Source: Candidatus Heimdallarchaeota archaeon (GTDB lineage: Archaea > Asgardarchaeota > Heimdallarchaeia > JABLTI01). Taken from it: a stretch of 64,000 nucleotides of DNA. The stretch's first letter is position 1. The number at the start of each line of letters is the position of its first letter. The stretch spans positions 32,001 through 96,000 of the forward strand of contig DXJV01000068.1 in NCBI GenBank assembly GCA_019056785.1. Direction: 5' to 3'. Below the pieces are notes generated by a model. The model was not told where the DNA came from. It saw only the letters and a program-made list of their open reading frames with translations, and made no database searches. Below are positions 10,517-32,496 of the stretch, one piece after another. The position numbers and the translations under genes were made by a program.

Positions 10517-12223
10517 TTAAAAGCCTATTCGCTTTTTACTCAAAAATTGATCTTTAATTTTAGTGCAAAACTCTTTAGTTGCTATTCTTTCTCTTGCTAT
10601 TTTCCCATTCTCGAGCATAATAACTCTACTGTTTGGGATGAGTGATAGCAAATCATGAGTTACAACTATGGCTGAGGCGCCTGTACCCATAATATAATCT
10701 ACAAGGAGGCTCATTACTTTGTGTTTGTTCATTTCGTCTAGATTGGCAGTGGGCTCATCTAGAAGTAAAATCTCCGGTGCTTGCAATAATCCTAAGAGAA
10801 ATGAAGCTCTTTTTCTTTCTCCTAATGAAAATTTTGCGACATCTTGATCTGTGATTTCGTCTAATGTGAGAAAGTGAAGAAGAAAATCCTTTTCATAGAA
10901 TGCCCTTTCCTTTTGAGTCTTGTGAACATTAAGGAAATAATTGAGATTTTCATCAAGGGTCATAGAAGGATACAAATTAACATATTGAGATAAATAATAC
11001 ATTTTTTGAGCGCGAACTTTTTCAACAAGAGATTGATTTGAAGAAGAGATAGCCTTGCCAAAGAGCTCTAAAGAACCATTAAAATCCAAGTCCATCCCAG
11101 AAAGAATGTTCAAAAAAGTGGTCTTCCCAGAGCCTGAAGGCCCAATTAAAAACACCAATTCACTTGGAAGAAGTTGGAGATTTATCCCATCAAGGATAAG
11201 CTGATCATTCGGAGAATGATACCACTTTTGTAAATTCTTACATGCTAGGATGGGTGTTACCCCCTTCTTGTGCTTTTTTGGATGAAATCCTGAGATTTTT
11301 ACAAATTGAGGATGTTCTACTTCTTTAAACGCTTCTGAGCCTTGTGGATTCTCGAGGAAGACTTTCTTTATTTCGTAATCAATAACGAATTTTACTTTCT
11401 TATCAAGAGCTAAAAGTTCCTTTATACGATTTGGTAAGAAAAGATAAGAAAAGCTATCAATATGCGAGACAAATATTTCTTTTGTCTGATTTTCCTTTTC
11501 TTGCTCTCCTTCTAAAAGATGTTCATTCAAGTCTTCTTGGGTATACACAGCACCCAACCTACCATTGAAGATTAGAAATGATTCGGAGACAACAGAAAAG
11601 TAAACAGGATCATGGCTTACCACTAAAATAGTTGTGCCTTCTTGTTGGTTTATTGCTTTCAATAACTCAAGGATAACTTGTGTGTTTTTTTTATCAAGTT
11701 GCCCCGTAGGCTCGTCTGCCAGCAAAATAGGCGGATTCGTTATAAGAGCAACAGCAAGACTCACTCGCATGCTTTCTCCCATGGAGAGCTGTTTGGCACG
11801 ATGCTGAGAGAGATGTTTGATTTCCATTCTTTCTAATGCATCTTCTACTACCTTTTTACCTTTTTCCCTGCTTTCCCCTAACAAGCGAAGGGGGATCAAG
11901 AGGTTTTGTTCAACAGATAATTCCGGAAACAAATTATAGTGTGGCATTTGATTAAGAAAGCCAATATTTTGAAGCCGAAATTGGTACAATTTTTTTGGTG
12001 TTAGTAAATCAATATCTTGAGACAACACATTTACTTTGCCACTCGTTGGTTGTTCTAAACCACTTAGAATTCTTAAGAGTGTGGACTTTCCAGCTCCACT
12101 TGGACCGATGATGGAAACAAAACTACTTTCTTCAACTGCCAAATCACATCCACTTAATGCGACAATGGATCGACCCAACTTAGGATTTGGATAAATTTTA
12201 GTTATTGCCTCTAATTTAATCAT
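10517..12223 (-). CDS. ABC ATP-binding protein with two fused LolD/MacB-type NBDs (cassette A)
   Basis: Two Walker A (GPSGAGKST, GPSGSGKTT), two DEPT Walker B, two H-loops; signatures LSMGE and FSLGE. Confidence 0.92.
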   Translation of the reverse strand: MIKLEAITKIYPNPKLGRSIVALSGCDLAVEESSFVSIIGPSGAGKSTLLRILSGLEQPTSGKVNVLSQDIDLLTPKKLYQFRLQNIGFLNQMPHYNLFPELSVEQNLLIPLRLLGESREKGKKVVEDALERMEIKHLSQHRAKQLSMGESMRVSLAVALITNPPILLADEPTGQLDKKNTQVILELLKAINQQEGTTILVVSHDPVYFSVVSESFLIFNGRLGAVYTQEDLNEHLLEGEQEKENQTKEIFVSHIDSFSYLFLPNRIKELLALDKKVKFVIDYEIKKVFLENPQGSEAFKEVEHPQFVKISGFHPKKHKKGVTPILACKNLQKWYHSPNDQLILDGINLQLLPSELVFLIGPSGSGKTTFLNILSGMDLDFNGSLELFGKAISSSNQSLVEKVRAQKMYYLSQYVNLYPSMTLDENLNYFLNVHKTQKERAFYEKDFLLHFLTLDEITDQDVAKFSLGERKRASFLLGLLQAPEILLLDEPTANLDEMNKHKVMSLLVDYIMGTGASAIVVTHDLLSLIPNSRVIMLENGKIARERIATKEFCTKIKDQFLSKKRIGF

Positions 12224-15150
12224 CAGGTTTCCTCCCTTATTGATGGCTGGAAGTTTAAGAACTTCTTTAGATAGAAATACCGAATACTAACATCAATTCC
12301 AATTATAACTACTATTAGAACAGAAAGATAAACAGAAATCTTGGAAAAATAGGGGACTTCAAGAACCCAATTATCCGCCTTAACAAGGATCTTTAGGAGA
12401 AAAGTAAGAGTACCAATACCAGCGGCACAGCCAATTGGGAACATTAATACTAGGAGAAGGAGATACTCGAGTAAGAATCCTTTTGAGATGTTTCTAATTG
12501 GAGTACCCCGATAACGCAATACAAGTATCTTTTCGCGGCGGTTGTTAAGTTCCTCTCTAGTTAATACAATATTTGTAGTGAAAAAGCTTATCGTTGCAAA
12601 GACACCCGAGGTAATTGATAAAGCAAAAATGCTGGTAGAAAAGGTGGGCAAGTACTTTGGATACCAATCAATCCATGTTGTTGGCAAAAAAGAATAGCCA
12701 AGAGCATCAACTTCTTGTAAAAATTGCTTAACTTCTACATGCTTTTCAAGTTTTACAAGAACAGCTTCTTCAATTATAATAATCAAGATGTCTTTTTGGT
12801 GGAGAAGGATGGTTTTAAAACCCCCTTCTGTCATCACAAGAAATGGAACCGTTCTTCCCTCTTCGTACTGTGCGTCCATTAACTCTTGATCATTCAGAAG
12901 AATCGGAAAGCGGTTAAAAGTTCCCCAAACAGTAAAATTAACTTTCACGAATTCATTTTCTGAAGCTGAGAGATTGTTTATTCCTATGGTGAGCAGACTC
13001 TCTCCTTGTTCAACTTCAATTCTATTGTTAAGAAAATCATCTTTTGATTGCGTTAGAATGGCATTAGTTCTATTGCAAAATTTCTCTAAACTATTTTTTG
13101 TGATCCCCATATGGTATTCTTTAGCATACGCTACAGTGGATCCAAAAGTGGGAGAAACAACAAGGACCTGGTAAACAACATTATAAATTGTCAATTGAAT
13201 AAAAGAATAATTGGCTGTAGAAGAGACCGAAGGAAGAGAAGAAACATCTGAAATAAAGCTCTCAGTAATAGAAGGTTGTTCTAAACGAAATGAAACATCA
13301 GAGCCGAGCATAAATCTTGCTGAATTAGCAGCGTGTTGAGTGAGGTAGGCCGGAAGAATGAACGATTGTAAGAGGATAAGGAAAAAGAGTCCAATAAAAA
13401 AAGATTGTTTTCTTTGATGCTGAAAGGCAAAAGACAGATTGTGTAATAAAATAGAGAATTTTTTAGAGACTTTTTCCCAGAGAGTTTGGGCGGTTGATAC
13501 CACTTTCAAGAGTAATATATTTATCAAAATAAAAAGAACGCAAACAACTACCATCGCAATAAAAAGATATGAAAAAGTGTTTAGAATGAAGCTTAAACTT
13601 GAAGTTAAATCTTCTTGAGCAAATAAAAATCTCTTTACTAGTAAAAAGGATGTTAACCCAATTAATCCAAACGTCGCCATTAAGCTGAAAATTAATAGCT
13701 GCATTTTCGATGTGTTTTTAGGATGAGTGGAGATAGAACTAAGGCGATTCGGGAAAGAAGCTTCAACTTGCTTGAGAAGAATTACCAAACTAATTAATGA
13801 AAAGCCAAAGATTATGATAAAAAACAGCAATGAGGGAAGAAAAACAGTAGCGAATGAAATGAGTTGTAATGGAAGAAAGTGTGATTTTAATAATAAGGTG
13901 ATTATCGCCAAATTACCATATGTTATAGGAAAGGCAAACAGAAGAGCGCAAAAAGCAGAAAGGGCCAACTCCAGAAATCGTGCCACTGAAAAAATTTTGA
14001 GAATGGTTTTTCTAGAAAAACCGCGAGTCAAAAAATTTGTGTAAATATCTGATGTTTTTAGAATGTTTGTCGAGACACTAAACCAAAGAATTGCTATTGA
14101 AAAAACTGTGACAAGGAGTCCAATTGCGATTAGACGGAACCACTGTTGCCGTATTTCACTTTTGAACGCCGCCATAAATTCAGCCAATTCTGGGCTCACG
14201 TTTGCGAAAAGCCCATGATAATAGGAGGGGCCTGAAAGTTTGGGCAAATTTTCTGCTGTCTTATAGAGTTCTTTTAAGTGAGAAATTTTGAAAGAAGAAA
14301 AATCATAAAGGAATTGGACATTAATGCTAATCTCAGAATATAATAATGCAGGGAAATAATGAAAGAAATCGGTTAGATAATCGATTGGGACTAAGAGTAA
14401 AGGGTGTTGAGAAATAAACCCCAAATTGCTACTTAAAGCGTGATGGAGAAAAGGATTTTCTGTGCTGAGTCTCCCTTCAAGGAGGAAATCATTCACTGAA
14501 AAATAGTTTGAGATACTAGCGTTTAAAGGGTTTATTAGAAAGGTGTTATTAATGAATACATCATCAATTTCTAAAGAAAATGGTAGAATAGAAATATTAT
14601 CCCCAATAGCGTAAGAATATTCGTACTCATCAGTTGGCAAATCGGTATTTCTCACCAAGATAACCTCATTATAGGCAACCGGCATCGTTTCGAAGGCAAA
14701 ATACTTGGAGGCTTGCATTAGAGTTTCATTTTCTAGGAACAGAACAGTTAGTGGTGCGAATGTTCCTTGTGCGAAAAATTGCATTTCTGCTTCGCATAAC
14801 ATTAATCGATCAGTTATATATCCTTCTAAGTTTGAATAAGAAATGATTTCTGTCACATCTTCGTCAATATTCTTTAGAAGGTCTGAGGGGATGTTGCTCG
14901 TGTTCGAAAGATAAGACTCACTCATCATGTAATACAGAGAATAATAGTCATCTTGTTCCAATGGGTGTAACGTTTGATATTCAGGTAAAAAAGAGGATTG
15001 CACACTTAGTCCGGTAAAAAGGGTAGGGAAGAATAAAAGGAAAGGAAGCATGAAACTTAAAAGATTAAAAGTTAATTGTCTCTTGTCACTAAAAGAAAAG
15101 GAAAATGCACTATAGAATAGTGCTTTGAAAGAGAGCTTTTCTTTGGACAT
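12223..15150 (-). CDS. FtsX/MacB-like ABC permease, doubled architecture (cassette A)
   Basis: Two TM/large extracellular loop/TM-bundle repeats, LGSDV and LRYRG-type motifs; 1-nt overlap with the ATPase. Confidence 0.8.
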   Translation of the reverse strand: MSKEKLSFKALFYSAFSFSFSDKRQLTFNLLSFMLPFLLFFPTLFTGLSVQSSFLPEYQTLHPLEQDDYYSLYYMMSESYLSNTSNIPSDLLKNIDEDVTEIISYSNLEGYITDRLMLCEAEMQFFAQGTFAPLTVLFLENETLMQASKYFAFETMPVAYNEVILVRNTDLPTDEYEYSYAIGDNISILPFSLEIDDVFINNTFLINPLNASISNYFSVNDFLLEGRLSTENPFLHHALSSNLGFISQHPLLLVPIDYLTDFFHYFPALLYSEISINVQFLYDFSSFKISHLKELYKTAENLPKLSGPSYYHGLFANVSPELAEFMAAFKSEIRQQWFRLIAIGLLVTVFSIAILWFSVSTNILKTSDIYTNFLTRGFSRKTILKIFSVARFLELALSAFCALLFAFPITYGNLAIITLLLKSHFLPLQLISFATVFLPSLLFFIIIFGFSLISLVILLKQVEASFPNRLSSISTHPKNTSKMQLLIFSLMATFGLIGLTSFLLVKRFLFAQEDLTSSLSFILNTFSYLFIAMVVVCVLFILINILLLKVVSTAQTLWEKVSKKFSILLHNLSFAFQHQRKQSFFIGLFFLILLQSFILPAYLTQHAANSARFMLGSDVSFRLEQPSITESFISDVSSLPSVSSTANYSFIQLTIYNVVYQVLVVSPTFGSTVAYAKEYHMGITKNSLEKFCNRTNAILTQSKDDFLNNRIEVEQGESLLTIGINNLSASENEFVKVNFTVWGTFNRFPILLNDQELMDAQYEEGRTVPFLVMTEGGFKTILLHQKDILIIIIEEAVLVKLEKHVEVKQFLQEVDALGYSFLPTTWIDWYPKYLPTFSTSIFALSITSGVFATISFFTTNIVLTREELNNRREKILVLRYRGTPIRNISKGFLLEYLLLLVLMFPIGCAAGIGTLTFLLKILVKADNWVLEVPYFSKISVYLSVLIVVIIGIDVSIRYFYLKKFLNFQPSIREET

Positions 15151-16595
15151 TAATTGCTTTCCCTCGGCCTTTTCTTTTTAAGGAAATAGAAGGTTAAACT
15201 TCCAATTAAGATTGATGGGGTTATAATCGAAGCAGTGATTATCAGCCGGAAATAAACGATCCTTATTGCTTTAATAAGGAATGGTTTTTTAATTTGGCTT
15301 GCAGCTGGTCCAAGGACACTAATAGCTGATATAATTTTAGACCCACCTCCAATAGAATGGTAGGGGGATGCATTTCCATAAATAAAACCTAGGAAGTACG
15401 AGTCAATAACCTCTTGGGTGTTAATATTCCACGAAAAACTACTATAAAATGGCTCATAATTTTCATCTAACCCTAAATCAACAAAATTCCAACTAGGGTT
15501 GTCCTCGGTTAGGTTATAACACCCCCTGTATAATCTAGGACCAATATGAGGCACATTCCTTAAATATAACAAGTTCACTTCGGAGCCATTCATCGCAACA
15601 TCAAAAAATTTTGGAGCAGTCTCGTAGTAAATCTCATTTGTAATATATTGGCCAAAAATTCCATAAGCATTTGTTGTAGTGCCCTGTAAAACAAATGTAT
15701 GTATTGTTTTATTATACTCAAAAAGGGCAAACTCTGATGAATAACCGATACTTGTAGGCAAAAAGTAGAAAAACTTGCCAGTGGTTTGATCGAAAAGCAA
15801 TCTCCCACTATTAATTTCATAATTTAGATAAGAGAATGAAATATTTATAGGGCTCATGAATGTTTGGGTAGTGAAATTAAAAGGTAAGAAGAGGTAATCG
15901 TCCTCTGCTGTAAGGTTTTTGAAGAGAAAATATGCGCAGTTAAGGGTTGTAGCATAGCAAGAGGAGACCGGCGTTATCTTTCCATTAAGTGTGAAAGTTT
16001 GTTTGTTTACCGTTGTACCTTTTATCTTCAGAGAAATTACTTCTGTTGCTTTACTCTCACTACTGATACTAGTAAGGAGAAAAACATTCTCGTTGTTCAA
16101 GAAGCGTATGCCAAGTAACTCTGGGTTGTAATAGTAATTCGAATATACATATTCATTGACATTTAAAAGAAAGATTTTTCTACTGAAATTTGTGGTGGCA
16201 TTGTAATAATAGTAATAATAATTGTGGTCGTATCTTTGATTGCTTTTGTTTTCTTCTGTTGCAAGATAAGCAACAGAAAAGGATTGATCTGCAAAAGCTG
16301 AGAAACATATTTCATTATTCAGATAAAACTCTTCTTGTATGATGTTTTTCTTAACTTTCCCCTCTTCAACTGAAAAGTGTATCAAGTCTTTTTTGTATTG
16401 TTGAATAGATGCATAAATCAAGTGAATGTTATTAGTACCAACCATTCCACCATAGATGCCAAATTCTCTATTCGATGTTACTACAATATTATTTAATGAC
16501 ATTGAAGTTGAAACAGCTAAAATTTCACAATTTGTCATTAAACAGATAGACATAAAAGCAATTCCCAGTAAGATTTTCTTTTCCATGCTTTTCAT
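15150..16595 (-). CDS. Secreted, C-terminally anchored beta-rich protein (cassette A accessory)
   Basis: Signal peptide, many NxS/T sequons, C-terminal TM plus KKKRPR; 1-nt overlap with the permease. Confidence 0.75.
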   Translation of the reverse strand: MKSMEKKILLGIAFMSICLMTNCEILAVSTSMSLNNIVVTSNREFGIYGGMVGTNNIHLIYASIQQYKKDLIHFSVEEGKVKKNIIQEEFYLNNEICFSAFADQSFSVAYLATEENKSNQRYDHNYYYYYYNATTNFSRKIFLLNVNEYVYSNYYYNPELLGIRFLNNENVFLLTSISSESKATEVISLKIKGTTVNKQTFTLNGKITPVSSCYATTLNCAYFLFKNLTAEDDYLFLPFNFTTQTFMSPINISFSYLNYEINSGRLLFDQTTGKFFYFLPTSIGYSSEFALFEYNKTIHTFVLQGTTTNAYGIFGQYITNEIYYETAPKFFDVAMNGSEVNLLYLRNVPHIGPRLYRGCYNLTEDNPSWNFVDLGLDENYEPFYSSFSWNINTQEVIDSYFLGFIYGNASPYHSIGGGSKIISAISVLGPAASQIKKPFLIKAIRIVYFRLIITASIITPSILIGSLTFYFLKKKRPRESN

Positions 16596-16659
16596 CTCTC
16601 ATTTAATTTTTACTTTTTTTCTATAAAGACCTTTTTAAAAAGAAATAAAACCTCCATTT

Positions 16660-17317
16660 TTACGGGGGCCAAGGATCAGGAAAAGTGACGTATGCTAAAA
16701 CATCCTCAATTTCATTGTCTGCTCCAGAGGAGAAATAGTCATCTATATGGCTCCAAAAAGAAGCCCAATCATCATGCGAAATATCCGCCATCGGTCCAGT
16801 AGGCATATTGATTGTCCCACCGCCAAGAGGCAATGGTATAACCGTTATTATAGAATTCCATTGTTGCGTATTGTGTGAATTGCCAGATACCGACTTTTAA
16901 ATCATCTCCTGCGCTTTCTCCGAAATTATATTTGTATGATTTGTCGCTATGAGAGCCATCATATACTGTTATTCGCATACTGAAATCGTTCCAGCTATCA
17001 CCATTAGAATTCGAAGCTACAATAATTAAAAAGTCCATGTAGTTTAAATATGGCATGAATGCTGAATCAGGTCCGCTTAAAGTCTCATAGATATCAAAAT
17101 CATCTTTTCCTGTAGTTTCATACGCGAAATACCTAGTTGCTTTTCCTCCTGTAGAAGGAACATCAACAAGTAAAATTAATACGCTGTCGCCATATAATCC
17201 AGACCCATTAAAATGAATCCGTATATTATCGACATAAGCTGAATTAACAAAAAAAGAATTCAAGCTAAGTATAGTCAATAATACGGCAAAGAGAACAAGA
17301 AATCTTTTCGTTTTCAT
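16660..17317 (-). pseudogene. Small secreted protein (cassette A cargo); ORF stops at 16772 but probably continues in the +1 frame to 16660
   Basis: Signal peptide MKTKRFLVLFAVLL, GGGAGG before ATG; after ...GGYFA* the shifted frame from 16773 reads DDWASFWSHIDDYFSSGADNEIEDVLAYVTFPDPWPP* with the same D/W/Y/F-rich composition. Confidence 0.6.
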
Positions 17318-17331
17318 TTTTTTCCTCCCAT

Positions 17332-17410
17332 AATTTTTCCTATTCCAAAACCAAGAATAGTTGTAAACACTAGGATTAATAAAAAAAAGGTTGTTTTCTT
17401 TTACGTAAAA
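17332..17410 (-). promoter_or_regulatory. Conserved cassette leader, copy A
   Basis: Reverse complement matches 27711-27791 with 4 substitutions and a 2-nt indel; contains palindrome TTTTACGTAAAA and TATA-like TTTATTAA. Confidence 0.9.
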
Positions 17411-17604
17411 AAAGCAAAACTTTTTTTAATTTTTGATAGCTATATCAAACAATTCTAAGAAATCATTGGTTCAAAATTAACTTAAGTATAAATTTTTTTG
17501 CGATTTTTATTTTGCATGATTTGAAGGACTTTTTTCTTCTCATCGCAACTATTTTAAAGAGAAAACGAGAGGGAAAAATAGAGCACAATTCATTTGTCTC
17601 TTAT

Positions 17605-17713
17605 GAGTCTGTAGCGCAGCTAGGATAGCGCGGCAGCCTTCTAAACGGCTCATGACGCAATCATGTTCGGGAGTCGTTGCAGGTCGAGGGTTCAAATCCC
17701 TCCAGACTCGCCA
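17605..17713 (+). tRNA. tRNA-Arg(UCU) with 31-nt intron and encoded CCA
   Basis: Acceptor GAGTCTG/CAGACTC, D-stem GCGC/GCGC, anticodon stem GCAGC/GTTGC with CT-TCT-A, T-arm GAGGG-TTCAAAT-CCCTC, GCCA then T-tract; intron ~17644-17674 or 17645-17675. Confidence 0.9.
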
Positions 17714-17727
17714 TTTTTCACTATAAG

Positions 17728-18456: not shown

Positions 18457-18458
18457 GA

Positions 18459-20899: not shown

Positions 20900-21781
20900 A
20901 TGGTCTCGCCGGATAATAGCATTAAGCGTGATGAGAATGATGGGGCTGACCAAAGAGCCCTGGCAATTGCTCTTGCTTCTGATCTATCTGACCGGCTGGA
21001 AATTGTGAGCGAGGAGTTTTTAAAGACCGAAAAAACTAAGATGGAAACAATCAACCTCTCCCATTGGTACAACGAAAAACGCGTCTTAGCTGGCATTAGT
21101 TTGCCTATTTTTAAGAATAAAGTTACCGCTATTATCGGCCCCTCAGGGTGTGGCAAGTCAACTTTTCTTCGCGACTTGAACCGTATGAATGACATTATCC
21201 CCACTGCCCGTATTTCGGGGGAAGTTTTATTGGATGGGCAAAATATCTATGACAATAAAATAGATGTTGTTTCCCTCCGAAAAAGAGTTGGCATGGTTTT
21301 TCAAAGACCAAACCCTTTTCCTATGTCTATTGAGAATAATGTCGCCTATGGTCCATATATCCATGGTGCACAACCTGAGGAGTTAGCAGCTATCGTTGAA
21401 AGCACCCTACGAAAAGCTGCTCTTTGGGAGGAGGTTCGCGACCGTTTACAGGACAATGCTTTATCCCTTTCGGGAGGACAGCAACAAAGGCTCTGTATTG
21501 CCCGTGCTTTGTCTGTTGAACCAGAAGTTATTTTATTTGATGAACCCTGTAGTGCTCTTGACCCGCATGCAACGGCGAAAATAGAAGACCTTATTACTAA
21601 TTTGAAAAAAGATTACACTGTGGTCATCGTTACCCATAATATGCAGCAGGCCGCCCGAGTGTCTGATTACACAACTTTCTTTAATTTTGGTGAGCTGATT
21701 GAATTTAATACAACGAGGAAGATCTTCAAGTCACCAGAACGAAAGATGACGGAAGAATATATTTCCGGGCGTTTTGGCTAA
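20900..21781 (+). CDS. pstB: Phosphate ABC transporter ATPase (copy 1)
   Basis: [41 protein letters not shown]. Confidence 0.96.
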
Positions 21782-21798: not shown

Positions 21799-22674
21799 TT
21801 GAATATTGTGAATAAAAAACTCTTAGCGAAGGAAACCAAGGAGGAGGACATTGTACCAGTTGATATGCGCGCTTTATTCAAAGATGAAACTGAAATTATT
21901 CCTGAAAAGCTTGTGAAAAAATATGAAATCCGAATGGCTGTCAAGAAACTGAGCCATTGGTATGGAAATAATCATGTTCTCTCCGGCATTTCGCTCCCCA
22001 TTTTCAAAAATAAAGTCACTGCTATTATTGGCCCCTCAGGCTGCGGAAAATCAACATTCCTTCGCGACTTGAACCGAATGAATGACCTTATCAAGATTTC
22101 GAGAGTTCGTGGAAAGGTCTATCTCGATGGCATTAACATTTATAGTGAAGGTATTGATCTAATCCAATTACGAAAGAAAATTGGCATGGTCTTCCAAAAA
22201 CCCAACCCCTTTCCCATGTCCATTCGTGATAATATTACCTATGGCCCCATTATTCATGGAATAAATAAGGCTTATCTTCCAGGGCTTATTAAAAGCTATT
22301 TAGTAAAAGCTGCTCTTTGGGATGAAGTTCATGACCGCTTATCTGAGAGTGCTTTCTCACTTTCGGGAGGGCAACAACAAAGATTATGCATTGCACGAGC
22401 TTTGTCAATCGAGCCGGAAGTTATCTTATTTGATGAACCCTGTAGCGCTCTCGACCCACATGCAACGGCAAAAATAGAGGATTTAATTACGAAATTGAAA
22501 GCCGAGTACACCGTGGTAATTGTCACTCATAACATGCAACAAGCGGCCCGGGTATCTGATTTCACGGCTTTCTTCAATTTGGGTGAGCTAATAGAATTTA
22601 ACTCTACCAGAGATCTCTTTCGAAGCCCCATAAGAAAAATAACAGAGGAATATATTTCCGGGCGTTTTGGCTAG
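21799..22674 (+). CDS. pstB: Phosphate ABC transporter ATPase (copy 2)
   Basis: Same PstB motifs; different N-terminal extension. Confidence 0.96.
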
Positions 22675-22689
22675 ATAGTTTTAAAATAA

Positions 22690-24423: not shown

Positions 24424-24461
24424 ACGAGGAGGCGATAAACATATCTGAACCTCAAGACAAG

Positions 24462-25439
24462 TTGTCGGCTACCAAAAAAGAACTGGACGAAGCAAAAATG
24501 TCAGAACAACAACAAACCAGTGACGACTTAGCAAGCGATGAAGAAACCATTATCGCTATTGGAAAACAAAAAATCAGTTTTCAACATGTTGTTCTACTTC
24601 TTGCGGCAAGTTTGTCGGTGATTATTGTTGTTTTGGTGTTTATTTTCACTGTTCTCGAGGGATATAGGATCATCCCGGAATATGGTTTTATTGATTTTTT
24701 GTTTGGGCATGAATGGGACAGTCCACATGAGCAATATGGCATTCTTCCCATGATTGTTGGCACCATTCTTGTCGTTCTTATCGCTGCAGTAATAGCAATT
24801 CCTGTTGGTACAATGGCAGCAATGTATCTTTCAGAGATCGCCCCTGAAATCGTCCGGAAAATTATGAAGCCAATTATTGAGATATTAGCAAGCATCCCTT
24901 CGATAATCTATGGATTTATAGGTTGGCGAACGTTGGTATTATTTTTACAAAACCAATTGGGGTTCAAGTCTGGAAGGACGGCATTCACAGCTGGGGTCGT
25001 GCTTTCAATAATGATACTTCCAACAATAATTACTATCGCCGATGATTCCCTTAAGGCAGTTCCTCGAGCGTATCGTGAAGGCTCGTTTGCTCTAGGCGCT
25101 ACCAATTGGCAGACCATCCGTAAAGTCGTCTTGCCAGCCTCGAGTTCAGGCTTGACTGCAGCGTACATTCTTGGCTTTGGGAGAGCCATTGGAGAAACAA
25201 TGGCAGTATATTTTCTGGCAGGTGGAGGCAAGAATCTACAATGGAACATTTTCAGAGGTGTTGATACTTTGACTTCTTTGATTTTGAAACAACTGCCAGA
25301 AGCATCTATTGGAAGCGTAGAATACCATGCCATCTTTGGTGCCGCATGTGTCCTTTTTCTCATAACATTTTGTGTTAATCTCATAGGCGACTTGCTTATC
25401 AGACGTTTCTCTAAAAAATTCAGAGGTGCAAGTAAATGA
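24462..25439 (+). CDS. pstC: Phosphate ABC permease PstC
   Basis: LASIPSIIYG, GRAIGETMAV motifs. Confidence 0.95.
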   Translation: MSATKKELDEAKMSEQQQTSDDLASDEETIIAIGKQKISFQHVVLLLAASLSVIIVVLVFIFTVLEGYRIIPEYGFIDFLFGHEWDSPHEQYGILPMIVGTILVVLIAAVIAIPVGTMAAMYLSEIAPEIVRKIMKPIIEILASIPSIIYGFIGWRTLVLFLQNQLGFKSGRTAFTAGVVLSIMILPTIITIADDSLKAVPRAYREGSFALGATNWQTIRKVVLPASSSGLTAAYILGFGRAIGETMAVYFLAGGGKNLQWNIFRGVDTLTSLILKQLPEASIGSVEYHAIFGAACVLFLITFCVNLIGDLLIRRFSKKFRGASK

Positions 25440-26368
25440 CTAAGGAAAAATCTGACAACTCCCTAACTGAAAAGGATGTTTCTTTCGATGACTTGCCGAA
25501 GAGGAAGCGTTTGCTTAATCCTAAACAGTCACAAAAAATCGGCTATAGCATGCTGCTTTCTTCAATCATTTTTATCGTCATTGTGTTGGGAGTTTTTCTT
25601 GGCTATATTATTATCAACGGTTTGAAAAGCATTAATTTCAAATTCATTTTCTCGAGTTATAATCCAACAGTAGGGCGTTATGGTTTATTCCCATCCATTA
25701 TGGGTACCTTTTTACTCATTATTGGCTCAATTGCTATCGCAGCGCCCCTTGGTTTGCTTGCTGCGATTTATCTTACAGAATATACTAAGGGAGGCATAAT
25801 TGTTTCTATAATTGACCAAGGCATTAATAATCTCGCAGGCGTACCTTCTGTGGTCATTGGTGTTTTTGGTTATGCATTATTTAGTGTTTATCTTAAGATG
25901 GGTTCATCTATGATTGCTGCTTGGCTGACGCTTGCTTGTATGCTCTTACCAACAATTATTAGAACATCCCAGGAAGCACTTCGAAGTGTGCCTCGTACAT
26001 ATCGGGAAGGTAGCTTTGCTCTTGGTGCAACCAAATGGCGAACAATTCGGTATGTTGTTCTTCCCCCTGCTTTGCCAGGGATAACAACTGGTATAATCCT
26101 TTCCCTAGGGCGTGCAGCTGGCGAGACTGCAGCGGTACTCTTCGTTGGTTCTGGCGTTTTTTTCAACAGATTTTTTAATGGTTTTAGTGGAACGTTCATG
26201 AACTTGCCCAATTTCCTATTAACACTTTACCGCTCAGCTGGGGGGTGGGAACAAGTGGGGGATGTAATGTGGCTAACAGCATTTGTTTTGATTTTAATTG
26301 TCTTCTCCTTCAATGCAGTGGCAATTGTTATAAGAAATCGTTCGGAAAAGCAACGCGGCAGCTATTAA
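25436..26368 (+). CDS. pstA: Phosphate ABC permease PstA
   Basis: LAGVPSVVIG, GRAAGETA motifs; ATGA overlap with pstC. Confidence 0.95.
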   Translation: MTKEKSDNSLTEKDVSFDDLPKRKRLLNPKQSQKIGYSMLLSSIIFIVIVLGVFLGYIIINGLKSINFKFIFSSYNPTVGRYGLFPSIMGTFLLIIGSIAIAAPLGLLAAIYLTEYTKGGIIVSIIDQGINNLAGVPSVVIGVFGYALFSVYLKMGSSMIAAWLTLACMLLPTIIRTSQEALRSVPRTYREGSFALGATKWRTIRYVVLPPALPGITTGIILSLGRAAGETAAVLFVGSGVFFNRFFNGFSGTFMNLPNFLLTLYRSAGGWEQVGDVMWLTAFVLILIVFSFNAVAIVIRNRSEKQRGSY

Positions 26369-26412
26369 ACCTTCGCGGCAATCTCGAGAGAAAAAAAAAG
26401 AGAAAAGTGGAA

Positions 26413-27648
26413 TTAAATCCCGTTAGGGCTAACTCCAATGGGATTACTCGAGACACAAAATTCTATGCAATAGCGACAGTTTCCAGCATCCCAGTAATTC
26501 CACCACCACCAACCATTATTAGCAAAGTCGAGCATGGAATTTGCCCACCAGTTAAATGGTGAAAGTTGGTCATCAGAATCCGGCCACGAATCATCCTCCC
26601 AAGCTTGCGTGTTAATCTTTAAGGGGTGCGTTTTGGGGATGAGAACATATGCCATTGTCTTTTTCCAGTAGATATATCCTGCGCCATCACGTTTCACTAT
26701 ACCATAGAAATCTTCAGTCACATAGCCGGACCCACCGTAACCGTCACCGACATACCATTTCATGTACATTTCGCCTGCCCCTTTTGGCCAGGGGTCAGAA
26801 TCGATTTCATAATAAACGCCAACAAGGTTAATTTTCACATAATAACAATCGTTTGGATCCCAATCGCTTGTCTCAACAACATAAGTGTCACTATCTTCAT
26901 AGAGGTCTGAGGGGGAGACACCATAGGCTGTTTCCCAGGACCAGTTATCACCATCAGGATCTAGGTCAATGCCAAACAAGTCTTTGTATGCAGCCCAAGC
27001 AAGTTCAGAACAATACCAACCATCAACACCAGAAAGACTATTTGTGCCATCAATTTGCTTTGAGGTCCAACCCCAATCATAGACTGGTCCAACAGGATAA
27101 CCATCAAGACCGCCATCGAGTTTAGATTTGCACCAGTCAACTGCTTGTTGTCTTTGAGCGTTAGTTAGCCCCGCAACACGGATTGCAACTGCTATCTCAG
27201 CATGCTCATTCACGCCTTCAAGCCACGTCGAATAGCCCAAACCATTTCCGGCATTGTCACTTTTAGTCGAATGGATAACATATGGTGTTCCGACAGGCAT
27301 CCAACAATGCTGATCTCTATCCCAAATTTGCTCGCCCGGCTGAACGAAGCCAGCAAAAATTTCCGTGTGTGAAAACTCACCAGGGATCAAATAATCGAAA
27401 AATGATCCTGCTGTTCCAAGCAAGATAATATCTCCCGGTACCAACCCATTATATAATAAGCTGTTTTTCCCATCATCAGCAAATTTAAGGTCAGCTTGGG
27501 CCCCCTCTGTACTTTGAGTTGATAGCCTAACTAAATTGCCCGGCATGGGAATTTGATTGATATTAATGGAAAGCGGGATTATCAAAAGGATCATTCCACT
27601 CAAAAATAGGAATAAGAATATTGATCGTTTTTTATCTCCTATCATCAA
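26413..27648 (-). CDS. Secreted permuted papain-like NlpC/P60 (YaeF/YiiX-like) enzyme with C-terminal beta-sandwich domain
   Basis: Signal/TM, PGDIIL...FSHTEIF (His), YCSELAWAAY (Cys), VSPSDL; His-before-Cys order marks the permuted family. Confidence 0.85.
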   Translation of the reverse strand: MMIGDKKRSIFLFLFLSGMILLIIPLSININQIPMPGNLVRLSTQSTEGAQADLKFADDGKNSLLYNGLVPGDIILLGTAGSFFDYLIPGEFSHTEIFAGFVQPGEQIWDRDQHCWMPVGTPYVIHSTKSDNAGNGLGYSTWLEGVNEHAEIAVAIRVAGLTNAQRQQAVDWCKSKLDGGLDGYPVGPVYDWGWTSKQIDGTNSLSGVDGWYCSELAWAAYKDLFGIDLDPDGDNWSWETAYGVSPSDLYEDSDTYVVETSDWDPNDCYYVKINLVGVYYEIDSDPWPKGAGEMYMKWYVGDGYGGSGYVTEDFYGIVKRDGAGYIYWKKTMAYVLIPKTHPLKINTQAWEDDSWPDSDDQLSPFNWWANSMLDFANNGWWWWNYWDAGNCRYCIEFCVSSNPIGVSPNGI

Positions 27649-27710
27649 AAACCTTCCTTAGAGTTAATTGCAAAGCTATATCTGTAAAAGAACCTTAAAG
27701 GGTTCCACTT

Positions 27711-27791
27711 TTTTACGTAAAAGAAAACAACCTTTTTATTTTATTAATCCCAGCGTTTACAACCATTCTTAGTTTTGGAATAGGAAAAATT
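27711..27791 (+). promoter_or_regulatory. Conserved cassette leader, copy B
   Basis: Near-identical to the reverse complement of 17332-17410. Confidence 0.9.
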
Positions 27792-27804
27792 GTGAGTTGG
27801 AAAA

Positions 27805-28335
27805 ATGAATCGTAGAAAGAAAGTTGTTTTAACGGCATTAGTTTTAAGCATTATGACATTGGCAGGTCTGGGGGCACTGAGGACTATTTCAGACACCATC
27901 ACTTTAAAGAAAATCAGAGTTTACGTTTATTCCATAGATATTTATGACGACTTCCGGACAGGAAGCTATGAACTATTGCTTAGCTTCAAGTTTATGCGTC
28001 ATTTTGGCGATTTTGGCGGGCATCTTATTAATAACGATGACCAATATCCTAAAACAAACACCTACTTTGAAAGTTGTGAAACCTTCGATGGCGGAGTTGA
28101 AGAGATAAAATATTGTTATGAATACTTTGATTACAGCTATTGTAAACCATTAGGCAAGGCAAATGGCATCGTTCTGGTAACTTTTCGTGTAAAGAAAAAT
28201 GTCTTTAGCCATGAAGATCTCGTTTGGGGCTTAGGTGGGCTAGATGATACTTATGGCGTATACTACGAGAAAACCCTCTATTTTAAAAAATATAATGGAG
28301 GATTAATAATAAAGTATATGTTTTTAGAGGTATAA
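27805..28335 (+). CDS. Small secreted protein (cassette B cargo)
   Basis: Basic N-terminus plus hydrophobic signal, Tyr/Phe-rich mature region, 176 aa. Confidence 0.8.
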   Translation: MNRRKKVVLTALVLSIMTLAGLGALRTISDTITLKKIRVYVYSIDIYDDFRTGSYELLLSFKFMRHFGDFGGHLINNDDQYPKTNTYFESCETFDGGVEEIKYCYEYFDYSYCKPLGKANGIVLVTFRVKKNVFSHEDLVWGLGGLDDTYGVYYEKTLYFKKYNGGLIIKYMFLEV

Positions 28336-28413
28336 AGTGAAAAATAACCCCCCCTCTTTTCCTTTTTTATAAAAAGAGAAGGATGGTAGAAAAGAAATTG
28401 TGAGGTGTAATAA

Positions 28414-31122
28414 ATGGAGTTTATTTATAGATTATTTGCACGTAGAAAATATCTACTGAGGAGTTTCTTTATTATAAGTTTGCTTGTGTTTGCCTCATTA
28501 ACTGTTACATTCTTACCCCAAATAGTTAACCCACATATCCTTAGAAAATACTTAAATGATTTTGTTGTTGGGCATTCAACTGTAGCTCAAAACACCACGA
28601 CAGCAGACTATGACTTTAGATTTTTGATCCATTCAAACACACCTTCTTTTCTCAATAATATGAACAGCATCGCTGAAAAGGTTTCACAAAAGGTTTATGG
28701 CATGTATCAGGTTGATGAAATAATTTTCTTCACATATTTTTCATTAGCAATTCTTAATATTTCGAATTCTGATTCTTTCTTAATTGGTGTTTCAACAGAA
28801 TTTTATCAAGCACTCACCAACTCTTGTTTATATCCTCATACTCCCGGCGCCATTTTGCTTTCACAATTTCAGAATGATTCACTTGGTACTTATCAGGTAT
28901 CACTTCTTGGGATAGATGCCACACTCAATGTTACAAATAAGATTCTAGCAAGTAACTTTACTACTGCGTTCCCTAATTTTGAGCACTTTCTTCGTGATTA
29001 TTTGCTGTCCATGCGATTACCAGATCGACTTTTTTTTATGCCAATTAACGAATTGATAATACAATATGATATACTTATACAAAGTATTTGCAGCACTTGT
29101 TATTCTCTGCAAGGATATATCCTTTTCACCCAGAATCAGAAAGACATTATTTGCTGGTCAAGGGATTCTTTAAAGATGGTTAAGCAATTTGAAACCTTAT
29201 TTATGAATGAACTCAAAGTAGTTAGTACTATTACTTTTTTTTCCATGAGCCATAACGTTTACATCGAAGAGAATATCATCTCAAAAACTGCTTATGCTTT
29301 TATCAGCACAATTCAGTTGATAGTTTGGACTATCTCAATTATTTTATGTTTGCTAACGATAAAGAAACTTCAGAGTTGTAATTTCAAACATGAACTTCGA
29401 ATATTGTTCGCCGGCAAACGTTGGCATCAACGCCTTTCATATCACCTCCTAGAAAGCTTGATGCTAAGCTTCGCTAGTGTTCTTGTTGCTTCTGCTTTTC
29501 TTTTCCCTTTTCTAAAAGCTCTAATGCTTTTTCAAATGTCTTTTTCTTTTTCGACTACGTTCCTGCTTCATCTCTGTCTGATTCATACTTTTGTTTTCTT
29601 TAGTATATTCAGTGTTTTCATAGATTTTGAGTTCTTTTTACATAGGAATATAGAACATTATTCTGAAAAAATCGAATATCGACTCTTTGCTAAAATTCCT
29701 AGGCCAATTAAGTGGTTGATCCCTTTCATAGCTGTGCTAATTTTTTGGTCCATCCGAACAGACTGCCTTGCTTTGCTTATGTATGTGTCCTTTGTAGTTA
29801 TTTCCTTCTTTGTAGGTTTACTGACTGCCTTGTTTGCGCGGATAATGCTATCTCTTGGGATGCGACATTATTATAAAAAGAAGGAACGTTTGGATAATCC
29901 ACTTAGCTCAAAATTTATCTTATTAAAGCTTTGGCACAAACGTTTGAAAACTAAGCTATTTACTCATACTTTTGTTTTGGTATTAGTTTGTTCGGCTTTT
30001 CTCTTCATGAATTATTCCGCAGATGCAAAACGAAGTGAATATTTATGGTGGATGGGGGCGGAAATAGGGGTTAATGTTCCCGCAGAAAATACTTCTGCCA
30101 TAACTAATGCTTTGGATGGCATCCCCAAAATAATCGATTTTACCCCGAAAATTATTTTCAACCGATACTCTAAAGGAGATGAAGTTTTTAGTTATAGATT
30201 TAATGGGTCGACAATAATAGAAGTTAGCAGCAGCTACATGGGGGAACGCATTGATGGAATAGTTGGGCTTAATTTTTCGGATTATTTTCAATTTTATAAT
30301 GATTGGAATAAAAAAGGGTGGTTGAAGGATGGTGAGCTAAAAGGATTTGATGAACAGACAATTTTTGTTTCTCAAGCAATTCATGCTATGGGGATTAAGG
30401 TTGGTGACACTGTTTCCTTTTATAACAGCTCCTATAATTTTACCGTCAAGGGGATAATAGGCGCCTGGCCTTCAATAACAGATCAATATGGAACAATAAG
30501 CTCGTCTAAGCAACTCTTTATTATTGACTTGGGTTTTCTTCAAGGATTTCTAAAGGCGAGTAACATATCCTACAACATTCATTATAAGGTCCATACTGCT
30601 GAGAGAGACATTCAGACTGTGGTGGATATTTTATCTGGAATTACCACTATATCAATTAATGAGTTGGAATATTTAAATTTGGAAGTGTTTGTAGGGATAC
30701 GAAAGATCTTCTTAAATCCGATGATTATTTTAGCTCAATTATTGCTCTTTTTATGGGGTGGTTTATTCCTATATGAGAATTTTGAACGGGATACTTTAAA
30801 CTCAAAAATTAAACAATTAGGCATTATTGCCCTCATAAAAGACAATAAACGCCCTCTTTCTTGGTATCTGTTTTTCGAAGGAAGTTTACTTTACCTTGCC
30901 TTCTTTTTTGTTTTTGTAGTGATGTTTGCGATTACCTTTAGCTTCTTGCAAGGCTTTGGTGTGCTTTATAATATGAAAACGATTGTAATTTCCCGCTATA
31001 CTATCTACAATTCGATTTTCTTGCTCATCTATTATCTTGGGTTGTTAATTTTTCAACCTTTGATTGAATATCGCAAATTAAAAGAGCTAAATCTAAGCTT
31101 GCTATATCGACATTCGGAATAG
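28414..31122 (+). CDS. FtsX/MacB-like ABC permease, doubled architecture (cassette B)
   Basis: Two extracellular loops with TM bundles, MGAEI and GIKVGDTV...VKGII motifs; followed by two ATPases. Confidence 0.8.
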   Translation: MEFIYRLFARRKYLLRSFFIISLLVFASLTVTFLPQIVNPHILRKYLNDFVVGHSTVAQNTTTADYDFRFLIHSNTPSFLNNMNSIAEKVSQKVYGMYQVDEIIFFTYFSLAILNISNSDSFLIGVSTEFYQALTNSCLYPHTPGAILLSQFQNDSLGTYQVSLLGIDATLNVTNKILASNFTTAFPNFEHFLRDYLLSMRLPDRLFFMPINELIIQYDILIQSICSTCYSLQGYILFTQNQKDIICWSRDSLKMVKQFETLFMNELKVVSTITFFSMSHNVYIEENIISKTAYAFISTIQLIVWTISIILCLLTIKKLQSCNFKHELRILFAGKRWHQRLSYHLLESLMLSFASVLVASAFLFPFLKALMLFQMSFSFSTTFLLHLCLIHTFVFFSIFSVFIDFEFFLHRNIEHYSEKIEYRLFAKIPRPIKWLIPFIAVLIFWSIRTDCLALLMYVSFVVISFFVGLLTALFARIMLSLGMRHYYKKKERLDNPLSSKFILLKLWHKRLKTKLFTHTFVLVLVCSAFLFMNYSADAKRSEYLWWMGAEIGVNVPAENTSAITNALDGIPKIIDFTPKIIFNRYSKGDEVFSYRFNGSTIIEVSSSYMGERIDGIVGLNFSDYFQFYNDWNKKGWLKDGELKGFDEQTIFVSQAIHAMGIKVGDTVSFYNSSYNFTVKGIIGAWPSITDQYGTISSSKQLFIIDLGFLQGFLKASNISYNIHYKVHTAERDIQTVVDILSGITTISINELEYLNLEVFVGIRKIFLNPMIILAQLLLFLWGGLFLYENFERDTLNSKIKQLGIIALIKDNKRPLSWYLFFEGSLLYLAFFFVFVVMFAITFSFLQGFGVLYNMKTIVISRYTIYNSIFLLIYYLGLLIFQPLIEYRKLKELNLSLLYRHSE

Positions 31123-31123
31123 G

Positions 31124-31834
31124 ATGGTGGAAAAAATTACAGAAGAAAAAACACTTGTCGTACATGATTTGACTAAAATCTTTGCCCATCCATCAAAAAA
31201 AGACACCAATTTTTCTCTTTTTGCAGGTGCTTCTTTTAGAATGACCAATAATGCCCCCAATTTCTTATTGGGGGTTTCAGGTTCAGGGAAAACTACATTA
31301 CTTCGAATTCTCTCGTCGCTTGAGCCCATTAATGCGGGGGAGTTATTCTTGAATGAGATTGCCATTCATCTTCTCAGGGGAAAGGAAAAAACTGCCTTTT
31401 TACGGAACCTTGGAACTATGGATCAATTTCCGGCAAATAATCTTGCGTTGTCTCTTTCTGTCAGGCAAAATTTAGATTATACACTGACCCTTTATACCTC
31501 TTTAACACGAGAAGAACGGCAAAAACGAATTAAAGAATTCATTTCTCTCGTAGGGTTAGAACGACATCTCGAACGGCGCACTTTAGTTCTTTCAGGGGGA
31601 GAGCTCCGCCGTTTGGCTTTACTTTGTAGTTTAATCTATGAGCCTGAGTTGCTCTTATGCGATGAGCCGACCTCGCAACTAGATCATAACAATAAGCAGC
31701 TGGTTATTCGGTGCATTGAAGAACTTCAGTCTATTTCTAACGCGTTAATAGTGATTGCTACTCACGACCGGACAATTAGTAATAAAAATCCAACCTATGA
31801 GATAATTGATAGGAGGATACAAAAATGTCAGTAG
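31124..31834 (+). CDS. ABC ATP-binding protein (cassette B, NBD1)
   Basis: GVSGSGKTT, LSGGE, LLCDEPT, ATHD. Confidence 0.92.
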   Translation: MVEKITEEKTLVVHDLTKIFAHPSKKDTNFSLFAGASFRMTNNAPNFLLGVSGSGKTTLLRILSSLEPINAGELFLNEIAIHLLRGKEKTAFLRNLGTMDQFPANNLALSLSVRQNLDYTLTLYTSLTREERQKRIKEFISLVGLERHLERRTLVLSGGELRRLALLCSLIYEPELLLCDEPTSQLDHNNKQLVIRCIEELQSISNALIVIATHDRTISNKNPTYEIIDRRIQKCQ

Positions 31835-32496
31835 TTTCATTAAAGAATATTACTTATAGTGTAGAAGACAAGCATTCAAAAGAATTGATATCTATCTTGG
31901 AAGACGTTAATTTACAAGTAGCGGTTGGAGAATTCCATTTGATAACAGGCCCTTCAGGTTCAGGAAAAACCACTCTGTTACAAATCATTGCCACTATTCT
32001 TCAACCGACAGCTGGGGAGTTAACATTATTCAAAAGAAATGTTACTCGAAACAATTATTCTTCTGCAGACCTTTTCGTCATTAGACCGAAAATTGGTTTT
32101 TTATTTCAAAGTGTCTATCTACCAGAGAATTTAACAGTAAAAGAGTATTTGGAAGTTCAAACTTCGTTATCAAATATTGGTCTTATTTCTGCTAGAAGCA
32201 AGTTCAATGAACTTCTAAGTCAATTTGGAATTTCTTCAATATTAAACTGTAAGCCATCGACTTTAAGCGGCGGTGAAAAACAGCGAGTTGCTTTGGTGGG
32301 TTTGTTAGCCAGAGACATTGAGTTGCTTTTACTTGATGAACCAACGGGGTCATTAGATTATGAAAATCGTAAGAACCTTTGGGAGTTAATTTTCAAATTA
32401 AAAAAGAAATTAACGATTATTGCTGTAACTCATGATGAATCTATTGTCTCTAAAGTGGATGTGCATCACAAATTAGATTATGGTCATTTGCTTTGA
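31825..32496 (+). CDS. ABC ATP-binding protein (cassette B, NBD2)
   Basis: GPSGSGKTT, LSGGEKQR, LLLDEPT, VTHD. Confidence 0.93.
   Translation: MSVVSLKNITYSVEDKHSKELISILEDVNLQVAVGEFHLITGPSGSGKTTLLQIIATILQPTAGELTLFKRNVTRNNYSSADLFVIRPKIGFLFQSVYLPENLTVKEYLEVQTSLSNIGLISARSKFNELLSQFGISSILNCKPSTLSGGEKQRVALVGLLARDIELLLLDEPTGSLDYENRKNLWELIFKLKKKLTIIAVTHDESIVSKVDVHHKLDYGHLL

Follow-up and report, generated by a model that had tools for sequence, protein, structure and literature searches.

Two exported-protein cassettes with FtsX-type transport machines and a shared leader in a Heimdallarchaeota genome, a candidate conflict system

A 64-kb stretch of DNA from a Candidatus Heimdallarchaeota archaeon (assembly GCA_019056785.1, contig DXJV01000068.1, positions 32,001 to 96,000; here called the window and numbered from its own first nucleotide [nt]) carries two inverted gene cassettes, A and B, each coding for a small exported protein (the cargo), a large permease with two outer domains, and two ATP-binding cassette (ABC) ATPase domains, and each preceded by a copy of one leader. 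We read the cassettes as machines of the type VII ABC class that serve fast-evolving exported proteins, most likely for effector release and self-protection, and give this reading an even chance of being correct. The window is part of contig C98 of a host assembly of 2.87 Mb that is 82.5% complete; all genomes compared are incomplete metagenome assemblies, and any absence reported below means that a feature was not found in the genomes searched.

Asgard archaea are the closest known prokaryotic relatives of eukaryotes, and how they compete with or recognise their neighbours is little known; most of their exported proteins are without annotation. The locus provides two orphan families of exported proteins, both linked to a MacB/FtsX-type machine of their own, together with a defined putative operator/promoter module and recombination signatures in the form of leader conversion and a bounded variable module that has alleles in common between lineages. 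The genome, though small, also holds a greatly expanded set of duplicated FtsX permeases with no assigned substrates. If the effector reading is true, a route combining Sec with a type VII ABC machine would join the few known archaeal antagonism systems, and if the cassettes instead deploy surface proteins, they would represent programmed surface variation in Asgard archaea.

Organization of the cassettes

Cassette A (17317 to 10517, minus strand) is organized in the order cargo, anchored accessory, permease, and fused double ATPase, and cassette B (27805 to 32496, plus strand) in the order cargo, permease, ATPase 1, and ATPase 2. An earlier, sequence-only reading of this DNA had proposed this gene order and its coordinates, which hold for all eight genes, and had taken the cassettes to be AT-rich, in agreement with a G+C content of 0.34 to 0.38 in both against 0.39 to 0.42 in the surroundings. 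Its count of two nucleotide-binding domains per cassette is right for both, with the correction that the cassette A pair is fused in one 568-amino acid (aa) protein, and its description of the cargos as unalignable and the permeases as very divergent is confirmed by BLASTP and profile comparison. Cargo A and cargo B have no significant similarity by either method (hhalign probability, 3.5%), and neither do permeases A and B; the whole permeases align with an hhalign probability of 38% over one 49-column stretch, and in a comparison by segments like-named pairs are best in three of the five, all at or below 10%. The ATPases of the two cassettes are ∼33% identical, and the cassettes are read as two distantly related operons on one design.

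Cargo A (16660..17317, minus strand) is an exported orphan protein of ∼218 aa, with an open reading frame (ORF) at 17317..16772 and a tail in another frame to 16660. It is called at 181 aa here because of a single extra T in a T-run near 16780; a 95%-identical orthologue has 218 aa and its DNA is otherwise near-identical, and either a genuine mutation or an assembly error is compatible with the sequence. The secreted cargos had been put at ∼180 to 220 aa, and cargo A does belong to a ∼218-aa family, the 181-aa call being due to the frameshift at the 1-nt insertion. The N terminus is a good signal-peptide-like segment, and only three relatives are found among 5.8 billion sequence clusters. Structure prediction, proposed earlier as a check on both cargos, gives a poor AlphaFold2 (AF2) model for cargo A, beta-rich with a C-terminal helix (predicted local distance difference test [pLDDT], 52), whose best VIA matches (Z 4.7) are to TerD and PLAT-like sandwiches and are uninformative; a search of ESM-Atlas gives no usable match.

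The AF2 model is better for cargo B (27805..28335, plus strand; 176 aa; P0005), which has an N-terminal hydrophobic helix, four cysteines, and a predicted C2-like beta sandwich of eight strands following the helix (pLDDT 69). VIA Z scores reach 9.7 (root-mean-square deviation 2.7 over 113 residues) to the C2 domain of cPLA2, C2 or C2-like domains make up nearly all of the best 50 matches, the best Foldseek E value is 2e-3, and the atlas match to a C2 protein has TM values of 0.53/0.66. A Pfam scan finds no sequence-level C2 match; the resemblance to C2, a fold class that often binds lipid, is one of predicted fold and not of demonstrated homology. The cargo B family profile matches 53 representative clusters among 1.84 billion proteins, and one marginal match (P0053, E 1.3e-5) is located outside any cassette. 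The 78-nt spacer 3' of cargo B (28336-28413) contains a C-run followed by T-tracts and an A/T palindrome, and may be a partial terminator that sets the ratio of cargo to transporter.

The accessory of cassette A (15150..16595, minus strand; 481 aa; P0002) has a signal peptide, a large ectodomain, and a C-terminal transmembrane helix with a basic tail. It has no match in Pfam or NCBIfam, and the leads to a beta-propeller are weak. Three B-type cassettes in the genomes compared have an anchored protein of 255 to 277 aa between cargo and permease, and hidden Markov model (HMM) comparison finds no relation between the accessory families of A-type and B-type cassettes.

Permease A (12223..15150, minus strand; 975 aa; P0003) and permease B (28414..31122, plus strand; 902 aa; P0006) share a plan of 10 predicted transmembrane helices and two outer domains. 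Hydropathy places, in both, helix 1, an outer domain of ∼257 to 296 aa, three helices, two linker helices, one further helix after the sixth, a second outer domain of ∼228 to 237 aa, and three final helices, a predicted topology that in permease A corresponds to two FtsX units with outer domains of ∼240 to 300 aa. The second unit of permease A matches Pfam FtsX (PF02687) with 30.3 bits when residues 830 to 975 are scanned alone (cut-off, 25.5), the first (residues 330 to 470) matches weakly with 12.3 bits, and five of five permease A orthologues have an FtsX match. Permease B has no Pfam match, as a whole protein or in segments; its nearest ESM-Atlas clusters (score 0.98) are Asgard proteins of 935 to 985 aa, 92 to 100% of which have FtsX, and MacB_PCD is matched in 2 of 14 permease B relatives (best E value, 1.5e-4). 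The proposed assignment of both as doubled FtsX-type permeases is shown by Pfam for permease A; permease B is FtsX-like by language-model neighbours, the MacB_PCD matches of its relatives, and topology, but not by a Pfam hit. Cassette A is a member of the type VII ABC superfamily and cassette B probably is. Searches of the PDB with sequence profiles of both permease families give no match at E values up to 10.

The ATPase of cassette A (10517..12223, minus strand; 568 aa; P0004) contains two fused ABC_tran domains, and cassette B codes for two separate ABC_tran proteins, ATPase 1 (31124..31834, plus strand; 236 aa; P0007) and ATPase 2 (31825..32496, plus strand; 223 aa; P0008), the genes of which overlap. 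All of these domains best fit models of the LolD/FtsE/MacB clade (LolD, FtsE, L_ocin_972_ABC, and DevA), the same four being the best NCBIfam models for P0004. The top NCBIfam model for both cassette B ATPases is L_ocin_972_ABC (TIGR03608), at 123.7 bits for P0007 and 161.9 bits for P0008 against a cut-off of 254.85; the 269 bits of fused P0004 against this model are a sum over two domains. PDB relatives of P0008 include MJ0796, YtrE, LolD, and BceA. The ABC signature motifs of P0004 are LSMGE and FSLGE, departing from LSGGQ, with Walker A, Walker B, and H-loop apparently intact, and the cassette B ATPases have LSGGE.

These permeases are part of an FtsX expansion that is unusual for a 2.9-Mb genome. 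FtsX domain hits number 27, and the genome has 14 or more other double-FtsX ORFs of 800 to 1,000 aa, not counting the three B-type permeases that are invisible to Pfam. Double-FtsX permeases on contigs C45 and C58 have fused double ATPases as in cassette A, and a 79-aa signal-peptide protein is encoded upstream at the C45 locus.

A shared leader with a signature of gene conversion

Leader A (17318-17412, minus strand) and leader B (27709-27804, plus strand) are inverted copies of one element of ∼96 nt, 10.3 kb apart and about 90% identical (E 1.4e-29), much as the sequence-only reading had it in calling them near-identical. The identity starts exactly at a perfect 12-bp palindrome, TTTTACGTAAAA (17399-17410 in leader A and 27711-22 in leader B), and stops at the ATG. 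The layout from 5' to 3' is the palindrome, a TATA-like TTTATTAA, a short dyad, a purine-rich ribosome-binding stretch (GGAGG), and the ATG, and suggests an operator, promoter, and 5' untranslated module that would give both operons one input. A search across this genome and 40 related genomes, suggested earlier as a check, finds two copies in the 2.87-Mb assembly, each directly before a cassette cargo, and none in the 40 related genomes. With only two copies, a multi-copy mobile element is ruled out, and a 36-nt leader-like match in one related genome (G001) is flanked by unrelated convergent genes and is put down to chance. Folding z-scores of the leader RNA are -0.25 to -1.4 and the only Rfam match is to tRNA, such that a riboswitch-like leader is unsupported.

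The leader is not the leftover of a recent duplication, since no significant similarity extends into the cargo and permease genes behind it, and a comparison with a sister genome, which is ∼96% identical across the region and has both cassettes in the same order, shows exchange between the copies. In the leader core, the A copy here is 96.8% identical to the sister A copy and the B copy here is 89.6% identical to the sister B copy, and the A copy here is 98.9% identical to the sister B copy, above the regional identity of ∼96%. Ten sites are unique to the B leader of this genome, at core positions 43 to 93, and the sister B leader has the A state at all ten; a two-base indel at core positions 29 to 30 separates A from B in both genomes. 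Around leader B the genomes are otherwise closely similar, with one site differing in the 103 nt just upstream and cargo B 99.1% identical; ten differences in 96 nt have a probability of ∼5e-8 at the local divergence of 1% and of 0.006 at the regional 4%. This pattern is the signature expected of a short gene-conversion tract between inverted copies, and would most simply be explained if leader A had converted leader B in the lineage of the sister genome. The leader core of locus A is conserved between the genomes and the DNA immediately upstream is only ∼61% identical, so that the leader block is also under constraint. The copies are kept alike by gene conversion and, probably, by selection for co-regulation. 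The earlier suggestion that the cassettes are co-regulated or exchanged through the leader is accordingly borne out for a single control region whose copies recombine, and not for exchange of the genes behind it, as there is no evidence of cargo moving between A and B here.

The 12-bp palindrome occurs four times in this genome, against ∼0.8 expected. The third copy is extended, CCACTTTTTTACGTAAAAAGTGG, and lies on contig C11 near 129728 (L003:1480-1530, minus strand). A TATA-like box follows it after 7 nt, and a gene coding for a 119-aa membrane protein with four helices lies ∼100 nt downstream. These copies suggest a small regulon, to which the membrane protein gene may belong. A further candidate for the same operator is a gene divergent from cassette B that codes for a secreted protein like Peptidase_C92, with a permuted papain fold (26413-27648, minus strand); its start codon is only 63 nt from the leader B palindrome, and it may therefore be under the same control.

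An independent second case of one leader shared by divergent cassettes is present in a related genome, G010. Here, a leader of 54 nt, different in sequence from leaders A and B, is 96% identical between two B-type cassettes that lie 23 kb from each other; it too abuts the ATG, and a conserved motif precedes its TATA-like box. The cassettes behind it are only 30% identical in the cargo, 28% in the permease, and ∼50% in the ATPases.

A bounded variable block in A-type cassettes

Variation in A-type cassettes is concentrated in the cargo and accessory genes, a block with sharp boundaries that has a conserved leader on one side and a conserved transporter on the other. Genomes G008 and G010 carry an A-type cassette at the same chromosomal locus, where the upstream gene is 83% identical at the amino acid level, the leader is 88% identical in nucleotides, and the permease and ATPase are 85% and 92% identical in amino acids; cargo and accessory are only 41% and 51% identical. 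In 100-nt windows, identity drops from ∼86% to 47 to 69% at the cargo start and climbs again to 86 to 94% where the conserved C-terminal anchor is encoded, ∼200 nt short of the accessory stop codon. Accessory orthologues have, likewise, a hypervariable ectodomain and a conserved anchor. Relative to the sister genome, no gene of cassette A has diverged more than cargo A (93.4% nucleotide identity), and P0004 is 99.5% identical in amino acids; both permeases have nonsynonymous-to-synonymous ratios of 0.8 to 0.87, against 0.2 to 0.4 in neighbouring genes. The comparison of cassette content between strains that had been called for thus finds variable cargo and accessory genes on a conserved platform for the A type, and a cargo B that is not unusually diverged.

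Cargo and permease identities are decoupled in this family, at 55% and 78% between G010 and locus L025 and at 41% and 85% between G008 and G010, and a broken second cargo at L025 is 80% and 67% identical to the cargo type of the window, with permeases at 56%. A-type cargo types thus appear to cross lineage boundaries, incongruently with the transporter. Further traces of recombination are present. L025 is a tandem partial duplicate (L025:7728-17292) with a cargo, an accessory, a chimeric ORF joining the permease N terminus in frame to the middle of the second cargo, a 62-aa ORF that is the tail of that cargo in another frame, a second accessory, the permease, and the ATPase; it appears to record a duplication followed by deletion. 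Both L025 and G009 have two divergent accessory copies. In G008, an extra fragment upstream of the leader (L057:3597-3884) repeats the first ∼30 mature residues of cargo A, which is further evidence of recombination at the leader-cargo junction.

Distribution and cargo-permease pairing

Both families are patchily distributed. With the permease A of this genome as query, orthologues are found in 4 of 10 genomes of the same genus, and the 72 other genomes searched from the class yield none. The permease B family is multi-copy, with three members here (contigs C98, C74, and C91) and no more than three in any of the 8 of 10 genomes of the genus that have it; beyond the genus, single full-length relatives occur in one other genus of the class and in a different family of the phylum, the latter (G247) with the same gene order.

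Cargo B relatives sit just upstream of a B-type permease wherever the contig is long enough, and across nine B-type cassettes the distances between cargos correlate with those between permeases (Mantel r 0.53, p 0.001), indicating that cargo and permease are inherited together. It is in this sense of co-inheritance that the cognate pairing of cargo and permease claimed earlier is supported; co-folding cargo B with permease B, taken as two halves, gives a median score of 0.30 (mark, 0.32), which counts neither for nor against pairing. No cargo is found within 1.5 kb in 5 of 14 B-type cassettes and a remnant persists in one more; the frameshift in cargo A would be a further case of cargo loss beside a retained transporter. 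An A-type permease in G005 (locus L060, contig C48, 4978-12957) is truncated to the C-terminal 433 aa and adjoins a set of ORFs of 245, 619, 203, and 288 aa (the last PDDEXK-like) together with a LAGLIDADG-like ORF. This set of genes also lies next to the L025 cassette (L025:41-6016), and is probably a mobile element that disrupted the G005 cassette.

Genomic setting

The space between the two cassettes is occupied by an intron-bearing tRNA, a PHO4/PhoU_div pair, a pst operon with two pstB genes, and the papain-like gene. The tRNA gene (17605-17710, plus strand) has an intron-sized insert; Rfam matches it with 53.3 bits and ARAGORN missed it. It sits between leader A and the next gene, and the DNA between tRNA and leader is ∼61% identical to that of the sister genome. 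The tandem pstB-like ATPase genes (20900-21781 and 21799-22674, plus strand) are 75 to 79% identical in DNA over most of their length and belong to the pst/phoU/PHO4 phosphate-uptake cluster that fills the inter-cassette space. The 10.3-kb segment between the inverted leaders is not inverted in any of eight related contigs examined.

Interpretation and alternatives

The favoured mechanism begins with a small, beta-rich cargo, exported by a Sec-type route or anchored at its N terminus, and an optional second gene coding for a C-terminally anchored surface protein, followed by a type VII (MacB/FtsX/LolCDE-like) machine in which a fused, pseudo-dimeric permease would be powered by two ATPase domains. 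Sec would take the cargo out of the cytoplasm, and the ABC machine would act on it at the outer membrane face by mechanotransmission, without moving it across, either freeing it from the membrane of the producer or removing it for self-protection. Mechanotransmission is established for MacB, LolCDE, FtsEX, and BceAB, and systems of the BceAB and lactococcin 972 types are thought to release or remove effectors at the membrane. The role would be microbial competition through a secreted, membrane-binding effector and cognate self-protection, with transporter, leader, and anchor as a conserved platform, and cargo and accessory ectodomain as a diversifying module, sometimes exchanged and often lost.

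A conflict system appears to fit best with the bounded and fast diversification, the cross-lineage alleles, the broken and orphan copies, the patchy multi-copy spread, the low G+C content, and the transporters that outlive their cargo. Both the conflict role and the action on the cargo are inferred from architecture and evolutionary pattern. These are the grounds on which the sequence-only proposal of an archaeal polymorphic effector with cognate immunity survives; the domain evidence does not bear it out, as cargo, accessory, and permease have no toxin, lactococcin 972, or immunity family match in Pfam or NCBIfam. Other observations weigh on the same side. The cargo A model is poor, and the C2-like assignment of cargo B depends on a model of moderate confidence with Z scores below 10. 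Permease B has no HMM-level link to FtsX, and permeases A and B are not demonstrably homologous. The promoter elements and the transcription start are read from sequence alone. Hypervariability is shown for A-type cassettes only, because cargo B, at 98.9% amino acid identity to its sister counterpart, is less diverged than permease B at 97.0%, and the cassettes that lack a cargo are equally compatible with the small protein being a dispensable accessory.

Surface variation driven by viruses or by kin recognition fits almost as well as conflict; defence of the BceAB kind and control of the FtsEX kind are less likely. In surface deployment with antigenic variation, which we regard as a possible but less probable account, the machine would extract an anchored cargo and pass it to the surface layer or the accessory in the manner of LolCDE, under pressure from viruses or kin recognition. 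The accessories of both types have the signal peptide, large ectodomain, C-terminal transmembrane helix, and basic tail that are typical of archaeal surface proteins, their variable block spans the ectodomain and spares the anchor, Pfam and NCBIfam scans show no toxin domain, and the 14 or more other double-FtsX permeases in the genome suggest general envelope roles. That the cargo is often lost while the transporter is kept, and that the distribution is patchy and multi-copy, fits less well, as does the lack of a lipobox in most cargos; a single-membrane archaeon also has no obvious need of a Lol-like hand-over. A BceAB-like role in sensing or resisting foreign antimicrobials, with the transporter shielding a membrane target, the small protein as a binding or sensing accessory, and the leader answering to one envelope-stress regulator, seems unlikely to us: the 10 predicted helices with a two-helix linker resemble BceB-type permeases, the PDB relatives of the ATPase include BceA and PsdA, some transporters have no cargo beside them, and the operator palindrome also precedes an unrelated small membrane protein gene, but no two-component system or other regulator adjoins cassette A or B, there are two outer domains and not the one of BceB, and a hypervariable, exchangeable module of cargo and accessory would go unexplained.

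Less probable again is FtsEX-like mechanotransduction, in which nothing would be transported and ATP-driven movement of the outer domains would switch on an extracellular enzyme, either the accessory or the papain-like amidase divergent from leader B. Hydrolases of the NlpC/P60 type, CwlO and RipC among them, are under the control of FtsEX systems, FtsE ranks with the best-fitting ATPase models, and the Peptidase_C92-like exported protein begins close to the leader B palindrome; this neighbour is, however, present at one locus only and not beside the other cassettes examined, there is no coiled-coil partner, and neither cargo nor accessory matches an enzyme family in Pfam or NCBIfam. We give very little credence to a shared leader without special meaning, whether the remnant of a recent local duplication or a chance promoter capture, and without co-regulation. 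The low copy number and the lack of an RNA structure signal would suit it, but the adjacent coding regions are unalignable, paralogous leaders in two genomes are more alike than the region around them, the locus A block is conserved beside diverged upstream DNA, and the pattern recurs in G010 with a different sequence.

In its fullest form, the conflict reading describes a new conflict or recognition system of Heimdall-group Asgard archaea. Recombination would exchange a hypervariable exported effector, a C2-like or other beta-sandwich that may come with an anchored propeller-like partner, at a site flanked by a conserved leader and a conserved type VII ABC platform; the ABC machine would both release this effector and protect its producer, and gene conversion would homogenise the leaders of different cassettes in a genome so that all are co-regulated. 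This combination is offered tentatively, with the balance of probability against it. The literature searched contains no published description of this cassette type.

Comparison with known systems

The lcn972 operon codes for a Sec-exported beta-sandwich bacteriocin, a large integral membrane protein, and an ABC ATPase, and the sequence-only reading had likened the cassettes to loci of this type. The order of a small exported beta-rich protein, a large polytopic membrane protein, and one or more ABC ATPases is the same in both, and TIGR03608 is the top NCBIfam match of both cassette B ATPases. These ATPases score far below the cut-off, however, cargos A and B have no Lactococcin_972 family match in Pfam or NCBIfam at E values up to 0.01, and permeases A and B, with 10 predicted transmembrane helices, do not match the bacteriocin-associated family with seven in NCBIfam. 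As the cassettes belong to none of the three defining families, the resemblance is one of layout and not of membership. The structural matches listed for cargo B are mostly C2-type sandwiches, which speaks neither for nor against a likeness to the fold of Lcn972. The cassettes also differ in having cargos two to three times larger, two outer domains, two different ATPase domains, and an archaeal host. To our knowledge, neither a shared, converting leader nor a hypervariable block of cargo and accessory is a feature of lcn972 loci.

The type VII ABC systems (MacB, LolCDE, FtsEX, BceAB, and YtrBCDEF) have FtsX units with a large outer domain after the first helix, as predicted for the permeases here, together with ATPases of the LolD/FtsE/MacB type, and BceB has the same fused plan of 10 transmembrane helices. 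Individual members differ in their partners and substrates. MacAB-TolC has an adaptor and an outer-membrane partner, neither of which is present here. LolCDE acts on lipobox substrates, whereas the cargo A family and most of the cargo B family have no lipobox cysteine after the hydrophobic segment (one B-type cargo has an LLAC motif). FtsEX has a division or hydrolase-activator partner, with no counterpart here, and BceAB has a single outer domain, between helices 7 and 8, and a BceRS-like two-component system, in contrast to the two outer domains here with no such system adjoining. What sets the cassettes apart from all of these is a machine tied to a co-encoded, fast-evolving exported protein.

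Conflict modules offer parallels for this variability, including the hypervariable Ig-domain module of archaeal Thermococcales (PMC8416519) and the bacterial and archaeal polymorphic toxins (PMC3482391). Like these, the cassettes have a bounded variable segment with conserved flanks, tandem extra or broken copies (L025, G008, and G009), cross-lineage alleles, and a patchy, multi-copy spread. Polymorphic toxins combine a conserved N-terminal trafficking region with a swappable C-terminal toxin tip, and their genes precede an immunity gene, whereas here the whole small protein varies. The cassettes fall outside the polymorphic toxin definition, as variation extends across the whole mature cargo and the accessory ectodomain and no toxin or immunity domain is recognisable; delivery would differ too, with export here relying on Sec plus the ABC machine.

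A last point of comparison is the acidobacterial duplicated orphan permeases (ADOP; TIGR03434), which are 800 to 1,000 aa long, have undergone lineage-specific expansion, and are mostly without adjacent ATPases. Both are expansions of duplicated FtsX permeases, and those of the cassettes described here have two ATPase domains and a cargo gene alongside.

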